Translations under genes and position numbers: made by a program
In this document: one piece after another, positions 10,867 through 62,619 of the stretch
How positions within the stretch are numbered: the stretch's first letter is position 1
How the letters are laid out: each line of letters begins with the position of its first letter
Notes under the pieces: generated by a model
Told to the model about the DNA's origin: nothing
Database searches by the model: none
Seen by the model: the letters and a program-made list of their open reading frames with translations, nothing else
Assembly (NCBI GenBank): GCA_015064845.1
Contig: SVRL01000001.1
Location: 10,346-74,345, forward strand
Direction: 5' to 3'
DNA: 64,000 bases
Source of the DNA: Oscillospiraceae bacterium
Lineage (GTDB): Bacteria > Bacillota > Clostridia > Oscillospirales > CAG-272

Positions 10867-11955
10867 TTATACAGCATTCCTTTTCATTTTTCCACACTTT
10901 TTTGAAAAAAACTTAATTTTTAATAAATTTAAAAGATAAACGGAACAAAGAATCGTCAAAAACAGAACAAATATCAATTTTTCTCCATTTTTCTGCTCGG
11001 AAAGTACAAAAAACAGAAATGAAAAAAGGGGACAAAACATACCTGTCAGCAATTTTCCTGCAAAATAAAGTACAGGAGAATAAAAAGCAGCCTCTGTTCT
11101 TTCCAGAACTTGCATGAAAACGGAAACTCCTCCGAATCCGAGCAAAACGCCTCCGAGCACCAACAAGGCTTCCATAGAAAACGCAGAAGATGAAAGTTCC
11201 AGAAAACCGAAAGAAAGCTCCATCAAACCGCCGAGCAATGCACGCACACCCTTTCCGACAGGAAGACCCAAAAGGGCGCACGTATCAAAAAGAACCGTAT
11301 TGACGAAAGAAAAAAAGACAACCAATCCGCAAACGGAAAGCATTGCAGAAACACTTTCCTTCACAGATGCACTGACTGCGCGTGGGACGGAAATACGGGA
11401 AAACGCAATTGTGTTTTCCGATTCGAGCACACTTCTTCGAAAAAAAGCCGTCAAACAAAGCCCCGTCCATGCCGCCGCAGATTGCGCCAAAAAGAAAATT
11501 ACTCCCTTTTGCGCATCTGAAAACAGCGTAGCCCCAACAGTACCAATCAAAAATGAAGCTCCTGCTTGATTGCAAAACGGCAAAATGGAAGCCGCTTCTC
11601 TTTTGGAAATTTCTCCTCTTTCGCAAAATTCCGCAAGCATGGCAGCCCCCGTTGGGAATCCTGCAAAAGAACCAATCAGAAAGGCAGAAAATCCGCAAGG
11701 ACTCAGTCCTGCCGTTTTTAAAAAAGTTTTTAGCGGCAAAGCAGAAATCCGATCGGCAAAACCAGTTTTTACTAACAGTTTGGAACAAACGGAAAATAAT
11801 GCAAGCGATGGCAAAACGGAATGCACAAAAACAGAAAGCGCGCGTCTGACGGTTTCCATCGTCCGTCCGGGCATAAAAACCGAATAAGCTGTCAGCCATA
11901 TGACTGCCAATAAAAAAAGCAAGGAGGAAAATCCATCCTTTTTTTGTCGTATCAT
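10867..11955 (-). CDS. ylbJ: Sporulation integral membrane protein YlbJ-like
   Basis: VLPSL, GFPTGA, N-x-G and GFGGVSVFMQ motifs; many TM segments; GGAGG RBS. Confidence 0.7.
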   Translation of the reverse strand: MIRQKKDGFSSLLFLLAVIWLTAYSVFMPGRTMETVRRALSVFVHSVLPSLALFSVCSKLLVKTGFADRISALPLKTFLKTAGLSPCGFSAFLIGSFAGFPTGAAMLAEFCERGEISKREAASILPFCNQAGASFLIGTVGATLFSDAQKGVIFFLAQSAAAWTGLCLTAFFRRSVLESENTIAFSRISVPRAVSASVKESVSAMLSVCGLVVFFSFVNTVLFDTCALLGLPVGKGVRALLGGLMELSFGFLELSSSAFSMEALLVLGGVLLGFGGVSVFMQVLERTEAAFYSPVLYFAGKLLTGMFCPLFSFLFFVLSEQKNGEKLIFVLFLTILCSVYLLNLLKIKFFSKKCGKMKRNAV

Positions 11956-13578: not shown

Positions 13579-13681
13579 AAAAAAGCGGGCAACGCCCGCC
13601 GGAGGTTGCTTGTCTATCTAAACTTTGCTCATATTCAAACAATGTAAAACGGCAAGGTTGATTTTATGCAATTTCCTATAG
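13579..13681 (-). repeat. Dispersed ~100-bp structured element, copy C
   Basis: Minus strand reads CTATAGGAAATTGC...CCTTGCCGTTTT...ATAGACAAGCAACCTCCGGCGGGCGTTGCCCGCTTTTTT; aligns with 61601-61702. Confidence 0.9.
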
Positions 13682-14737: not shown

Positions 14738-15216
14738 AACTGAAACTTTATTTTTCCAACGAACAGAAAAAAATCAAAATTTCTTTCAAAATACGCCATT
14801 TGATTACCAAAGCGGTAAAAGAAGCATTGAAACAAGAGGAATTTGAATATTTTGCAGAAATTTCCGTCAGCTTTATTGATAACGAAGCCATTCACAAGCT
14901 CAATCTGCAATACAGGGAAAAAGATAAACCTACCGACGTTCTTTCCTTTCCCATCTGGGAAAAGGATGAGTTGGAAGACGGAATTGCTTTTGACGGACAC
15001 GCCGTAACGCTCGGCGATATCATCATCTCCGCAGAACAGGCAAAAGCCCAATCGGAAGAATACGGACACTCATTGGAACGCGAAATCTGCTTCCTTGCTG
15101 TACATTCCGTTTTGCATTTGCTCGGTTACGATCATGAAACCTCAGAAGAAGATGAACGTTATATGAAGCAAAAACAGGAAGACGTCTTGAAAAAAATCGG
15201 ACTTCCGAGAAAATAA
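14734..15216 (+). CDS. ybeY: rRNA maturation RNase YbeY
   Basis: PTDVLSFP and HSVLHLLGYDH motifs. Confidence 0.96.
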   Translation: MKLKLYFSNEQKKIKISFKIRHLITKAVKEALKQEEFEYFAEISVSFIDNEAIHKLNLQYREKDKPTDVLSFPIWEKDELEDGIAFDGHAVTLGDIIISAEQAKAQSEEYGHSLEREICFLAVHSVLHLLGYDHETSEEDERYMKQKQEDVLKKIGLPRK

Positions 15217-15312
15217 GCGGCGAATCGCCGCTCTCGGTCGCCGCCGTATTTTAGTTTTTTGCAAATTTGAAACTTTGCTTAATGGGCGGAATTCATCTGC
15301 GCAATTTCTACC
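15215..15312 (-). repeat. Dispersed ~100-bp structured element, divergent copy E
   Basis: Minus strand reads GGTAGAAATTGCGC...CCGCC...GGCGGCGACC...GCGGCGATTCGCCGCTT; same length and stem order as the other copies but lower identity. Confidence 0.6.
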
Positions 15313-37773: not shown

Positions 37774-38784
37774 TTAAAACTGACGCAAGAAACGAACGTC
37801 GTTTTCATACATCAAACGAAGGTCATCGATGCCAAGTCTTGCCATTGTGATTCTTTCCACACCCATACCGAAAGCAAAACCGGAATATTCATTGGGATCA
37901 ATGCCGCAGTTGGAAAGAACGAAGGGGTGTACCATACCCGCGCCGAGAATTTCCATCCAGCCTTCGCCTTTGCAAAGACGGCAGCCTTTACCGCCGCAAA
38001 CGAAGCAGGAAACGTCAACTTCCGCAGAAGGTTCTGTGAACGGGAAATGGTGAGGGCGGAAACGGATTTTGGTTTCGGGACCGAACATCTGCTTTGCGAA
38101 AAGCTCAAGAATACCCTTGAGGTCGCCCATGGTAATACCCTTGTCTACAACAAGACCTTCAACCTGGTGGAAAATAGGAGAATGTGTCGCATCCGCGGGG
38201 TCTGCACGGTAAACACGTCCGGGAGAGATGATACGGATCGGAGGCTTTTTGTTTTCCATAACACGAACCTGAACGGGGGATGTCTGGGAACGAAGCAAAA
38301 TGTTATCCGTAATATAGAAAGTATCCTGCGTATCTCGCGCGGGATGGTTTTTGGGAAGGTTCAAAGCTTCAAAGTTGTAATAGTCATACTCTACTTCGGG
38401 ACCTTCCGCAACGGAAAAGCCCATACCGATAAAGATTTCGCGGAGCATTTCTTCCGTCTGTGCAATAGGATGGCGGTGTCCGACAGTCTGGATTTTGCCG
38501 GGCAAAGTAACGTCCAATTTTTCCGTCATCAAACGGCGTTCCATTTCCTTTTTCTTCTGTTCTTCCGCTTTTTTCGTCAAGGCCTCTTCAATGGTAGCTC
38601 TGACTTCGTTTGCAAGCTGACCGATGATCGGTCTTTCCGCGGGAGCAACCTTGCCCATACCGCGAAGGACGGCTGTAAGCTCGCCCTTTTTGCCGAGATA
38701 TTTGATGCGAAGCTCTTCCGTGTTTTCCGAAGCTTCGATTTCAGCAACTGCTTTGATGCGAATCTGTTCAAGCAATTCTTTCAT
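37774..38784 (-). CDS. pheS: Phenylalanine-tRNA ligase alpha subunit
   Basis: [23 protein letters not shown] and [10 protein letters not shown] motifs. Confidence 0.97.
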
Positions 38785-38863: not shown

Positions 38864-38964
38864 AAAAAAGTGGGCAACGCCCACTCGAAGTTGCTTGCCT
38901 ATTGCAGTTTTTTCTATATCAAAACAACGCAAAACGGCAAGGTCAATTCGAGCAATTTCCTATA
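38864..38964 (-). repeat. Dispersed ~100-bp structured element, copy D
   Basis: Minus strand TATAGGAAATTGC...CCTTGCCGTTTT...ATAGGCAAGCAACTTCGAGTGGGCGTTGCCCACTTTTTT. Confidence 0.9.
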
Positions 38965-38968
38965 ATAT

Positions 38969-39222
38969 AAAAAACTCCCGTCCGCAGCAAAGGGACGGGA
39001 GCCAAAAGCTTCCGCGGTACCACCCGATTTTCCCGAAAATATTCTTTTCGGAACACTCAAATTACGCCGATAACGGGGCTTTCCGTCTGATGCTACTTTA
39101 TTTTCACATCAGCCACTCCAAAGCGAAAGGCGCACCGCGACGGATAATCCGATCTCAGCAAATTCGGATCTCTCTGTGAAGCCGTTTTCTGCGGATAGCC
39201 GCTTTTTCACCGTGTTTTCATA
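38969..39222 (-). ncRNA. T-box riboswitch (Phe) leader of pheST
   Basis: Minus strand shows AGAGA and GCTGA stem-I motifs, candidate TTC specifier, T-box AATCGGGTGGTACCGCG, and CTCCCGTCC...GGACGGGAG-TTTTTT terminator. Confidence 0.92.
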
Positions 39223-60014: not shown

Positions 60015-61376
60015 TCATGCGAATTCGTTGCAGATGCTATTGATTTCATACTCAAAAGCGCTGTCGCCGGACATTTTGCTTTTGATGACATCAATGGAGG
60101 AAAGAATGGTCGTATGATCTCTTCCGAAAATTTTCGCGGTGTTCTGCAAGGAAAGGTTTGTCACGTTGCGAATGACGTAAATGGCGATGTGGCGCGCGAG
60201 CGCAATATCGGTCGTGCGTTTTTTGCCTTTGATATCTTCAATGCTGATGTTATAGCGTTTGGAGATATTTTCTATAATCTGTTCCGCAACGAGTGCGGGG
60301 GGAACGGTGCCCGAGATGACGCCGGAAAGAACGTTTCTGGCTGTATCTACGGTAATTCTCGTTCCGTTTACAAAGCTGTATGCTCCGAGTTTTTTGATGA
60401 CGCCTTCCAGCTGTCTGATGTTGCTTTTTACGTTTTCTCCGAGGAAATTCAGAACGTCATCGGAAAGATTTACGTTCAGAAGCTGCGCTTTTCGTTTCAA
60501 AATCGCAATGCGCAATTCTGTTTCCGGCGGTTGGATGTCTACGATCAATCCGCCTTCAAAACGGCTTTGAATTCGTTCTTCCAGGTGCTGGATATCCTTG
60601 GGAGGACGGTCGGATGTCAGAATCACTTGTTTTCCTGCGTCGTACAGGGAGTTGAAGGTGTGGAAAAACTCTTCCTGTGTGGAAACCTTGCCTGCGATGA
60701 ATTGGATGTCGTCGATCAAAAGCATATCGGCATTGCGGTATTTTTCCTTGAATTTGGTCGTGGTCTTTTTTTCGATGGAGCGAACCAGCTCGTTTGTGAA
60801 GTCTTCACCTTTGATGAGGATGATATTGAAATGCGGACGGGTTCTTTTGACTTCGTTCGCGATTGCTTTCATAAGGTGCGTTTTTCCGAGTCCGCTTGGA
60901 CCGTAAAGGAAAAGCGGATTATACTGTTCCGCGGGATTGTTTGCGACCGCGACGGATGCCGCGTGGGCAAGTTTGTTTGAACTTCCCACGATAAAGTTAT
61001 CGAAAGTATAGTCCTTTTCGGAGACGAAAGCCGTGTCGTGCGTAGGTTCTTCGTCTTTTTCCTTAACCGGTTCGGGCTCTTTTTTTACGGCGGGCTTTTC
61101 CGCAAGCAGAGCGCTTTCCAATTTGAAGGTCGATTTCGCAAAAACTTTGACGTCAACGTGGAAATTCAGCGTTTGTTCAAAGATCGCGGCGATATCGGGC
61201 GCGTATTTTTTATTCAAAAGATCCACGAAGACTTCGCTTGTGGTTGTGATTAATGCCCGTTCGTCATCGAAATATTCCAGTTCAAAATTTTTGAACCAGA
61301 GCTCGATAACGGCTTCGGGATATTTTTTCAGTATTTCGTCGTAAACGATATTCCAGATGGCTTGATTGGAGTTCAA
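60015..61376 (-). CDS. dnaA: Chromosomal replication initiator DnaA (probable TTG start)
   Basis: YNPLFLYGPSGLGKTHL, LLIDDIQF, QEEFFHTFN and GRDHTT motifs. Confidence 0.98.
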   Translation of the reverse strand: MNSNQAIWNIVYDEILKKYPEAVIELWFKNFELEYFDDERALITTTSEVFVDLLNKKYAPDIAAIFEQTLNFHVDVKVFAKSTFKLESALLAEKPAVKKEPEPVKEKDEEPTHDTAFVSEKDYTFDNFIVGSSNKLAHAASVAVANNPAEQYNPLFLYGPSGLGKTHLMKAIANEVKRTRPHFNIILIKGEDFTNELVRSIEKKTTTKFKEKYRNADMLLIDDIQFIAGKVSTQEEFFHTFNSLYDAGKQVILTSDRPPKDIQHLEERIQSRFEGGLIVDIQPPETELRIAILKRKAQLLNVNLSDDVLNFLGENVKSNIRQLEGVIKKLGAYSFVNGTRITVDTARNVLSGVISGTVPPALVAEQIIENISKRYNISIEDIKGKKRTTDIALARHIAIYVIRNVTNLSLQNTAKIFGRDHTTILSSIDVIKSKMSGDSAFEYEINSICNEFA

Positions 61377-61488
61377 AGTTTTATCCCTCTTTCCGTGTTT
61401 TGATTTTCGGCGCTTTCCGAAAAAGCGCAAAATAAGCCCTTTATATAATAATTATTATATATTATATCATAATAGTTATTTTAAATCA

Positions 61489-61579
61489 AGTGGAAAAAAC
61501 GAAGGTATTTCAGAGTTCTTCACACTTTTGAAAAAATATTTTGAAAAAATTCAAATAATTGTGGAAATTATGTGGAAAT
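61489..61579. promoter_or_regulatory. DnaA boxes upstream of dnaA
   Basis: AGTGGAAAA (61489), TGTGGAAAT (61560, 61571). Confidence 0.6.
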
Positions 61580-61600
61580 TATGATAGACTATTTGCATAC

Positions 61601-61702
61601 CATAGGAATTTGCGTAAAAATGATCTTGCCGTTTTGTATTATTTGAATATAGGCAAAGTTCAGATAGGCAAGCAACCTCCGGTGGGCGTTGCCCACTTTT
61701 TT
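61601..61702 (+). repeat. Dispersed ~100-bp structured element, copy A
   Basis: CATAGGAATTTGC...TCTTGCCGTTTT...ATAGGCAAGCAACCTCCGGTGGGCGTTGCCCACTTTTTT. Confidence 0.9.
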
Positions 61703-61705
61703 ATG

Positions 61706-61805
61706 CTATAGGAAATTGCGCAATTTAAACCTCGCCGTTTGTATCATATGAACACAAGATGATTGTCGGTAGGCGAGCAACTTCCGGTGGGCGTTGCCCA
61801 CTTTT
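61706..61805 (+). repeat. Dispersed ~100-bp structured element, copy B (tandem with A)
   Basis: CTATAGGAAATTGC...CCTCGCCGTTT...GTAGGCGAGCAACTTCCGGTGGGCGTTGCCCACTTTT. Confidence 0.9.
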
Positions 61806-61848
61806 CATAAGAAATCAAAAATCATTCATAAGAAAGAACGGATCAAAC

Positions 61849-62619
61849 ATGAAAATTTTAATTTTGGGCGATGTCAGCCGTGCTTCCTCCTGTAAATACG
61901 TATGCGAACGCCTTTGGCGTTACCGAAAAGAGCATGGGATTGATTTTGCCGTTGTGAATGGGGAAAACTGTGCAGAAAGCAACGGGATTGATAAAAATTC
62001 GGCAAATATGCTTTTTTCCGCAGGTGCGGACGTCATCACAACGGGGAACCACGCCTTTAAGCGTTATGAAGCAAAAACGCTTTTTGAAGAAGAAAAAATG
62101 CTGTTGCGCCCTGCTAATTATCCGGATATTGTTCCGGGAGAAGGGGCTGTTTTGACAGATGCTGCGGGCATGTCCATTCTTGTGATCAATCTTTTGGGGA
62201 TCGTTATGATGGAGCCCTTGGAAAACCCGTTTTTTGCGGCGGATAAAATTCTGGCTCGTTATCGGGGGAAATATGATATTTCCATTTTGGATTTTCATGC
62301 CGAAGCAACATCGGAAAAGCAAGCGCTTGCTTTCTATCTCGACGGTAGAGTGACAGCAGTTTACGGCACGCATACACATGTGCCTACGGCAGACGAATGC
62401 ATTTTGCCGAAAGGTACTGCATACATCACGGATATCGGTATGTGCGGACCGGAGTTCAGTGTTCTGGGAATCAAGCCGGAATGTATCATTGAAAAAATGA
62501 CAACGGGGCTTCCCGTCAAATTCATCCCTTCGGCCAATCCCGTTGTTGCGCACGGTATCGAACTGGAAATCGACCGTAAAACAAAAAAAGCGGTCTCTAT
62601 TCGGAGGGTTATGTTTTGA
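61849..62619 (+). CDS. ymdB: YmdB-family metallophosphoesterase
   Basis: ILGDV, VNGEN, TTGNH, DFHAEATSEK and GTHTHV motifs. Confidence 0.93.
   Translation: MKILILGDVSRASSCKYVCERLWRYRKEHGIDFAVVNGENCAESNGIDKNSANMLFSAGADVITTGNHAFKRYEAKTLFEEEKMLLRPANYPDIVPGEGAVLTDAAGMSILVINLLGIVMMEPLENPFFAADKILARYRGKYDISILDFHAEATSEKQALAFYLDGRVTAVYGTHTHVPTADECILPKGTAYITDIGMCGPEFSVLGIKPECIIEKMTTGLPVKFIPSANPVVAHGIELEIDRKTKKAVSIRRVMF

Follow-up and report, generated by a model that had tools for sequence, protein, structure and literature searches.

A ~105-nt interspersed repeat of an Oscillospiraceae genome, probably a non-autonomous selfish DNA element

Several families of short repeat are known that lie interspersed in bacterial genomes, and we summarize here those closest to the present element as they are described in parts of the cited papers. 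SPRITE of Streptococcus pneumoniae is a terminator-like repeat of ~105 bp with no known transposase (Croucher et al. 2011, PMC3049150). bcr1, the group A repeat of the Bacillus cereus group, is ~155 bp long, has 5-bp direct repeats at its flanks and is reported to be transcribed (work of Okstad 2004, Klevan 2007 and Kristoffersen 2011, as summarized in PMC3184786 and PMC6542083). REP repeats (20-40 nt, typically in inverted pairs) and the miniature elements of IS200/IS605 are high-copy extragenic sequences with a GC-rich hairpin and without terminal inverted repeats or target duplication, and the IS200/IS605 and REP-processing enzymes act at the lagging-strand template, that is, on the G-rich strand, which is transiently single-stranded (PMC6006769). 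Group IIC introns, which are far larger ribozymes moving with a reverse transcriptase, insert next to DNA hairpins such as intrinsic terminators (PMC3898094). In this study, we analyzed a non-coding element of ~105 nt that is present in five copies in a 64,000-nt stretch of an Oscillospiraceae bacterium (the window; GenBank assembly GCA_015064845.1, contig SVRL01000001.1, positions 10,346 to 74,345) and in ~140 copies in the whole genome. The element is very likely a mobile repeat, and it is best explained overall, with good probability, as a non-autonomous selfish interspersed DNA repeat and not as an RNA gene.

The element resembles SPRITE in its length of ~105 bp, in being non-coding and interspersed, and in a fold that ends in a stem and a T-rich, terminator-like tract. 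Both have no matching insertion sequence (IS) ends and no established target duplication, both are restricted to a single species group, and both are thought to be selfish with side effects on transcription. As described in the sections of PMC3049150 used here, SPRITE has an 18-bp duplex, a long T-rich tract and ~30 copies, whereas the element has a stem of 6-8 bp, 4-6 T and ~140 copies; head-to-tail arrays and a skew-linked orientation are features of the element that those sections do not report for SPRITE. The two are set apart here by description, not by sequence. bcr1 is likewise a Firmicute interspersed repeat of one group with tens to ~130 copies, whose positions are not conserved between strains, whose two-hairpin fold is kept by compensatory changes and for which the parts of the sources used name no transposase (PMC3184786, PMC6542083). 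It shares with the element a T-rich end motif, TTTAT in bcr1, which has been linked to bcr1 mobility. Unlike bcr1, the element is ~105 bp long and its flank is a longer T-run followed by AT(AC), with no copy-specific repeat detectable. Like REP/REPIN and the IS200/IS605 miniature elements (PMC6006769), the element is a high-copy extragenic repeat with a GC-rich hairpin and without terminal inverted repeats, and its orientation bias is what processing of single strands at the lagging-strand template would predict; as with REP there is a conserved short motif on the 5' flank and a RAYT-like gene in the same genome. Unlike REP, the element is ~105 nt long and forms head-to-tail arrays only, and no GTAG or CGTC tag was seen in it. 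It also departs from the IS200/IS605 miniature elements in that a compact hairpin is located at its 3' end only, the 5' part pairing long-range with the region before the 3' hairpin. The element therefore fails at least one defining feature of each known family tested.

The repeat unit and its conserved pairing

The window corresponds to C6:10346-74345 of the assembly G000, which comprises 2,440,034 bases in 154 contigs with 43% G+C. A first-pass annotation, made from the letters of the window without database searches, had noted five intergenic copies (A to E) of a structured element with a shared layout, and both the direct reading of the sequence and covariance-model matches confirmed the copies, their coordinates and their strands, as well as the layout and the inner-stem and hairpin variants that had been quoted. 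In the spacer that separates dnaA from a ymdB-like gene, copy A (61601-61702, plus strand; covariance match 61589-61708, 127.5 bits) is the first of two units arranged head to tail. Copy B (61706-61805, plus strand), the second unit of this pair, has 74% identity to copy A over the core and the inner stem CTCGCC/GGCGAG. Copy C (13579-13681, minus strand; 133.8 bits) is located between yqfD and phoH and copy E (15215-15312, minus strand; 101 bits) between ybeY and era, each antisense to both of its neighbors, so that the two lie antisense within the gene row yqfD-phoH-ybeY-era. Copy E belongs to a divergent subfamily with the hairpin GCGGCG-ATT-CGCCGC, a type seen again in many other copies. 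Copy D (38864-38964, minus strand; 125.2 bits) is sense-oriented, with the terminator of a T-box leader on one side and the start of pheS on the other. The covariance model, built from these five copies, recovered A, C, D and E in the window with E-values from 5e-33 to 1e-25, and copy B was recovered in the whole-genome covariance search at G000:C6:72040-72161 (window 61695-61816). A partial and weak covariance match at 11669-11726 on the minus strand (12.5 bits, E 0.98) may be either a decayed copy or chance.

Mean column identity is 75% in the alignment of the five copies. In the shared layout, TATAGGAAATTGC is separated by a spacer from CTYGCC, and an AT-rich middle then leads to GGCRAG-CAACYTCC, the GC hairpin and the T tract. 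One unit comprises a leader of a T-run and ATAC, TATAGGAAATTGC as a conserved 5' box, the AT-rich middle, which a 6-bp stem encloses, and at the 3' side a GC hairpin that together with its trailing T-run resembles an intrinsic terminator. The 3' hairpin has a stem of 6-8 bp, is 15-17 nt long and is followed by 4-6 T; in a pattern scan those of copies A, C and D were terminator-like, with 7-8 pairs and a 3-nt loop. The arrangement is that of an intrinsic terminator, a GC-rich stem-loop directly followed by a T-run, from which termination is predicted only.

The count of five copies, although real, was a large underestimate. A profile of copies A-D gave 132 nhmmer hits at E<=1e-3 on 61 contigs of G000, 88 of them full length and 15 within 300 nt of a contig end, and 138 of the 150 candidates scored matched the covariance model at E<=0.001. 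The nhmmer hits group into 111 loci, including 18 arrays of 2-4 units. All 18 arrays run head to tail on one strand with a period of ~105 nt, and exactly 10 nt separate the hairpin of one unit from the 5' box of the next. Eleven adjacent pairs were compared: four are at least 94% identical, which suggests local duplication, and seven are 49-89% identical, which suggests separate insertions or old duplications. Twins at 95% identity or above exist for 26 of the 88 full-length copies.

To evaluate the base pairing, 103 matches from G000 and several relatives were fitted to the model, giving 100 distinct rows. Pairing reaches 97.2% in the inner stem (CTCGCC with GGCGAG), where four of the six pairs have changes on both sides, and 98.7% in the terminal hairpin, where all six do. 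For these two helices the conserved pairing claimed by the first-pass annotation stood; the outer pairing that it considered possible (GGAAATTGC with GCAACYTCC) did not, being 76.8% paired and having one pair that fails in 91 of the 100 rows. The observed covariation was reached by none of 500 column shuffles, and pairing fell to 32-45% when the partners were slid against each other. Since the copies share ancestry, there were fewer independent events than the counts of pair changes suggest. Intermediates changed on one side only are nearly lacking: in one hairpin pair, for instance, 69 rows have C-G, 27 have U-A and none has G-U. The mismatches of the outer pairing are mostly A-C (136) as against G-U (26), and an A-C on one strand is a G-U on the other.

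Compensatory changes that keep two helices could equally be expected of a small RNA gene family or a cis-acting RNA motif whose fold is selected. The window copies do fold better than shuffled sequences, with z-scores of -2.3, -1.8, -2.1, -3.2 and -0.7 on the sense strand and of -1.5, -3.3, -4.1, -3.9 and -1.3 on the opposite strand, and a 3' hairpin with a T-run would end a transcript. However, neither strand stands out as an RNA by folding: averaged over 100 copies, the folding energy of the sense strand is -28.7 kcal/mol and that of the opposite strand -29.9 kcal/mol, the latter being more stable in 63 of the 100. RNAalifold predicted the terminal hairpin only on the 103-row alignment and almost no structure on a MAFFT alignment. 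Moreover, an RNA function is not demonstrated by compensatory changes among copies within a single genome, since the same pattern arises in mobile repeats whose spread depends on hairpins; this is a caution for similar sequence scans. The hairpins are preserved among the copies that multiplied; that RNA is the functional product does not follow.

Distribution and empty sites

In a covariance search of 40 relatives, the element was present in nine of 15 genomes of the same genus and absent from the other six. The element-positive genomes yielded 4, 6, 11, 44, 46 and 77 matches and, in four cases, at least 87. One weak match (E 2e-4) was obtained among nine other genera of the same family, and the same search found nothing in 16 other families. 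A frame of 1414 aa at G000:C22:7667-11908 is matched in nine of the ten genomes of the genus that carry the element, counting G000, and in none of the six that lack it, a distribution that suggests that the element-positive species form a sub-clade. Separately, an exact-pattern scan, for which one genome per species was taken, returned 56 loci. A profile search confirmed 41 of them; the other 15 had no nhmmer hit and were discarded as chance. The confirmed loci lie in uncultured Clostridia-type genomes labelled as goat, roe deer and water deer gut, with a few further records labelled Eubacteriales or Lachnospiraceae. Plasmid and phage collections contained no match to the element, and a single pattern hit on a viral contig, which had no covariance-model match, was likewise set aside as chance.

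The first-pass annotation could not place the element in a known family and had proposed a covariance model, searches of the genome and its relatives, and comparison with Rfam. These have now been carried out, and its failure to find a family holds: the Rfam scan of the whole window at gathering thresholds matched the T-box leader and no element copy, and a permissive scan of 61500-61900 gave a best match of E 0.22 and 16.9 bits against a gathering score of 128. Judged by the Rfam and collection searches, with the literature searched for comparators rather than for this sequence, the element appears to be an undescribed family within the general class of small interspersed bacterial repeats. 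Its kind, by analogy with SPRITE, bcr1 and the REP repeats, is one already known.

The loci of the window are empty in sister species. In G015, the closest species, the flanks of the A/B site are 83-91% identical to those in G000, and 14 nt are found in place of the 225-nt pair. This site is empty also in G012 and G007, and all three species carry the element elsewhere. The copy C site is empty in G015, G007, G012 and G003, the copy E site in G015, G007 and G012, and the copy D site in G007, G012, G003 and G005. At the copy D site G015 has only a short stretch that is similar to the first dozen bases of the element, either a deletion remnant or an element-like target. Because each is missing from the same site in sister species, the window copies are recent insertions and not conserved regulators. 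In the reverse comparison, 22 arrays of G015 were examined. For four of them the two flanks adjoin in G000, 7-47 nt apart; one region with two arrays is also occupied in G000, and one site corresponds to 1.8 kb of other DNA. The two flanks of the remaining arrays did not map together in G000. Flanks of loci from more distant species, when mapped onto G000, mostly fell in unalignable spacers.

A tree of 69 distinct copies from three genomes supports recent spread. The genome label changes 11 times along it, compared with 31-38 changes in ten printed values from 200 label shuffles. Since the tree clusters the copies by genome, most of the amplification took place after the species split, from several shared subfamilies, with independent multiplication in the sister species.

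These observations bear directly on the two options that the first-pass annotation had offered. Its REP-like, non-autonomous mobile element fits the high copy number, the restriction to one genus, the empty sites and the clustering by genome. Its non-coding RNA or cis-regulatory motif fares poorly: positions are not conserved, with no intact copy in G015 at any of the four window loci; the copy number ranges from 0 to at least 87 within one genus; both orientations relative to genes are common; and a pattern scan found no promoter-like site in or directly upstream of A/B, C or D. In addition, copies are interrupted by another repeat family without apparent cost, and no Rfam family matches. One contig of an RNA library spans copy C and its flanks exactly, which would suit an RNA product, though DNA may be present in that library and transcription is not implied. 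Taken with the folding results above, we regard an RNA gene or cis-acting RNA motif as highly improbable.

Ends, targets and orientation

Upstream of nearly all copies stands a T-run followed by ATAC, a left leader that varies much less than what comes after the 3' hairpin. The ends of the element are direct, not inverted, with the T-run/ATAC leader at one and the hairpin with its T-run at the other; no terminal inverted repeats were found, the sole inverted pairing being internal. The upstream T-run is often part of a host terminator, as for copy D, which follows the T-box terminator. In 21 of the 65 copies that have no preceding copy, an unrelated terminator-like hairpin abuts the upstream T-run (of these hairpins, two resemble leftovers of older copies), compared with 99 of 1734 control intergenic T-runs. 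The element thus tends to sit directly behind host-terminator T-tracts, a context that is recreated by its own 3' end. G015 also carries an IS200-type element (L132:1100-2059, on G015:C168) that encodes a TnpA of 153 aa and has matching hairpins at its two ends. Past its right-end hairpin, at a distance of 9 nt, a copy of the 105-nt element begins, which fits a preference for landing after hairpins; the end hairpins of this IS200-type element differ from those of the 105-nt element.

The flanking T-runs also permit another explanation, in which the element is a classical MITE, a miniature inverted-repeat transposable element, moved by a DDE transposase that strongly prefers a T-run followed by AT and leaves a target duplication of 8-10 bp as the two runs. 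T-runs are indeed found on both sides of most copies, and empty sites have one T-rich stretch where filled sites have two. Copy D has the same 10 nt on either side, and for the A/B pair and two further copies the left and right runs have an unusual letter in common. The size, the non-coding nature and the presence/absence differences between genomes fit as well. Against this, the left and right flanks match no better within copies than between copies (6.14/10 versus 6.04/10 matches, a value reached in 388 of 2000 permutations), and the left leader is far more uniform than the right tail. A MITE should furthermore possess terminal inverted repeats, and here the one inverted pairing is internal and reaches just 76.8%. 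In G000 neither an intact DDE transposase with matching ends nor a parent IS was found, and the DDE model does not predict an orientation linked to skew. We therefore consider a classical MITE unlikely.

The position after terminators, which recalls the insertion of group IIC introns next to terminator hairpins (PMC3898094), would also suit a spread via RNA, in which a terminated transcript is reverse-transcribed and inserted at T-runs in the manner of a SINE or an intron. The unit does end like a terminated transcript, with a hairpin and 4-6 T, and G000 has one reverse-transcriptase gene, whose RVT_1 domain at C132:2416-3030, the only one in the assembly, lies within a 645-aa frame. This gene does not track the element, no reverse transcriptase being found in G003, G004 and G005, which hold 46 to at least 87 copies. 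Nor was a promoter found upstream, and the conserved T-run and ATAC leader lies upstream of any plausible transcript start. Finally, a unit of ~100 nt is far below the size of a group II intron. Spread through an RNA copy is, in our view, scarcely credible.

The placement of the element mirrors the gene arrangement of the genome. Among 94 loci with a gene on both sides, 57 are in co-directional, 19 in convergent and 18 in divergent spacers, close to the proportions in all 1797 spacers (1195, 298 and 304). SPRITE differs in this respect, with 15 of 30 copies between convergent genes in the part of PMC3049150 used. Between co-directional genes the element is sense-oriented in 20 cases and antisense in 37 (binomial p 0.03); copies C and E exemplify the antisense majority, and copy D departs from it. 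The sense:antisense ratio changes with the length of the remaining spacer, from 5:17 at 120 nt or less to 6:11 at 120-300 nt and 9:9 above 300 nt. If the 3' hairpin of sense-oriented copies acts as a terminator, this side effect would explain why few sense copies are found in tight co-directional spacers.

A second bias concerns replication. The sense strand of the element is on the G-rich strand at 73 of 99 loci (10-kb flanks, copies excluded; p 2e-6) and, on the 17 contigs of at least 30 kb with a consistent skew, at 27 of 38 loci (p 0.014), so that the orientation is tied to the replication direction inferred from GC skew, as in the IS200/IS605 miniature elements. All five window copies obey the rule, the skew of the window being negative up to ~60 kb and positive beyond. 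By setting, the bias is 14:5 in convergent spacers, 10:4 in divergent spacers, 23:3 next to lagging-strand genes and, more weakly, 17:12 next to leading-strand genes; 63% of gene calls are on the G-rich strand. The orientation bias is not a by-product of gene orientation, because it holds in all gene settings and gene orientation would push the opposite way. Processing of single strands at the lagging-strand template, as described for REP and IS200 in the part of PMC6006769 used, would predict it.

For the mobile DNA repeat, a single-strand mechanism is accordingly our preference, because of the skew bias, the lack of inverted repeats and of a copy-specific duplication, and hairpins that changed without G-T intermediates. 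The element would move as DNA and be mobilized in trans by an enzyme. Its landing sites would be beside T-runs with AT behind them, in many cases the T-tract of a host terminator. Since its 3' end would rebuild the target, new copies could land behind old ones, producing the head-to-tail arrays with their fixed 10-nt junction. The hairpins would be kept since only copies with intact hairpins are copied further. An enzyme of the HUH/Y1 kind recognizing the hairpin on single strands at the replication fork is a tentative suggestion, which we hold with less than even confidence. The fuller picture, an HUH-type single-strand element of Clostridia that homes to terminator T-tracts on the lagging-strand template, arrays itself and is perhaps mobilized by a RAYT-like enzyme, is speculative and rather improbable.

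Mobilizing enzymes, host genes and a second repeat family

Several results weigh against a mobile element of this kind. First, no mobilizing enzyme could be tied to the element, and no transposase gene bounded by it was found. The Pfam family Y1_Tnp gave no match in G000, and its occurrence across the genus does not follow that of the element; the same lack of tracking applies to the reverse transcriptase. In G000, TnpB gave nothing above the cut-off, DDE_3 and Transposase_mut were not found, and only an rve fragment and one interrupted DDE_Tnp_1 were present. An IS110 domain match was a false hit, restricted to the N-terminus of the 1414-aa protein at C22:7667-11908, which presumably begins like a BadF/BcrA-type ATPase. 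Second, the junctions were compared only between species that are 70-91% identical, which places the ends approximately; a target duplication and a carried T-run both fit these interspecies junctions, and the few copies with an odd letter in both flanking T-runs, such as A/B and D, would suit a duplication of 8-10 bp. Third, no empty allele was seen within the species: contigs of other samples that cover C or E all contain the copies, with no joint that skips them, and two scans of metagenomes turned up no empty allele of A/B or D. Fourth, the gene calls behind the context counts are crude long-open-reading-frame calls made with the copies masked, and the replication direction derives from GC skew in a fragmented assembly. 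At last, compensatory changes alone cannot separate selection of a DNA hairpin from selection of an RNA fold.

Two other kinds of candidate were rejected in the search. The long dispersed repeats of G000, considered as transposases, encode ordinary paralogues, and hits to the left end only, considered as IS ends, are copies cut by another repeat family.

One HUH/Y1 protein deserves separate mention. A protein of 179 aa similar to REP-associated tyrosine transposases (RAYT) is encoded at G000:C35:6802-7338 and matches NCBIfam NF047646 with E 3e-18, below the curated cut-off. With a profile of six such proteins, the gene was detected in seven of the ten genomes of the genus that have the element, G000 among them, and in none of the six without it (Fisher p 0.011; the genomes are related and not independent). 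It is missing in three element-positive genomes and is present in eight genomes of other genera that do not have the element. An element copy is near two of the 12 RAYT-like loci of the genus, which is about chance level. As further counts against the mobile reading, no element copy lies within 1.5 kb of the G000 gene, the nearest being ~6 kb away, and the gene has its own repeated ends with different hairpins, unlike the arrangement in REP/RAYT systems, in which the element would flank the gene. From these sequence comparisons the RAYT-like gene is a weak candidate for the mobilizer of the element.

The ends of the RAYT-like gene constitute an observation of their own. Its flanks of 50-75 nt recur at no fewer than eight other places in G000, and some pairs are ~170 nt apart, like derivatives that have lost the gene. 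Pieces related to the gene are located at C68:1-255, C84:20473-20607 and C6:82621-82905. Together with its ends, the gene has the appearance of a third mobile family.

G000 also has a second abundant repeat family, which comprises MITE-like units of ~390 nt with inverted ends of ~34 nt, for which 102 end matches were obtained. Examples are C123:2900-3313, C21:12350-12742 and C142:10304-10357, and no copy was seen in the window. Many of its ends lie 100-250 nt from contig ends, and several of its units interrupt copies of the 105-nt element. Both repeat families near contig ends probably contribute to the break-up of the assembly into 154 contigs. With ~140 element copies and ~100 second-family ends in a 2.4-Mb genome, they are relevant to the assembly and annotation of these gut bacteria.

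Within the window, the surroundings of copy D and of the A/B pair are of particular relevance to the host. The T-box leader (38988-39219, minus strand; Rfam RF00230, 93.5 bits against a gathering score of 93) ends in a terminator T-run that is directly followed by copy D, and downstream of copy D lies pheS (37777-38784, minus strand; Pfam tRNA-synt_2d, E 5e-106, the one match in the whole genome), with pheT next in the operon. Either the copy D hairpin would terminate poorly or pheS-pheT expression would be reduced. After the dnaA gene (60018-61430, minus strand) come an AT-rich stretch and repeats of the TGTGGAAAT motif, and the GC skew turns from negative to positive at ~60 kb; the replication origin is probably within 60018-61848, with copies A and B inserted right beside it.

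With the element, terminator-like hairpins have thus come into operon spacers, into the leader of pheST, a single-copy operon, and beside the probable replication origin, and its copies are a likely source of strain-to-strain differences in expression. If the reading of a single-strand element that seeks terminators is true, the family would offer a tractable example of structure-directed targeting outside Proteobacteria, and, with a RAYT-like enzyme as its mobilizer, it would be a Gram-positive counterpart of REP/RAYT with a different unit architecture and a structural target.

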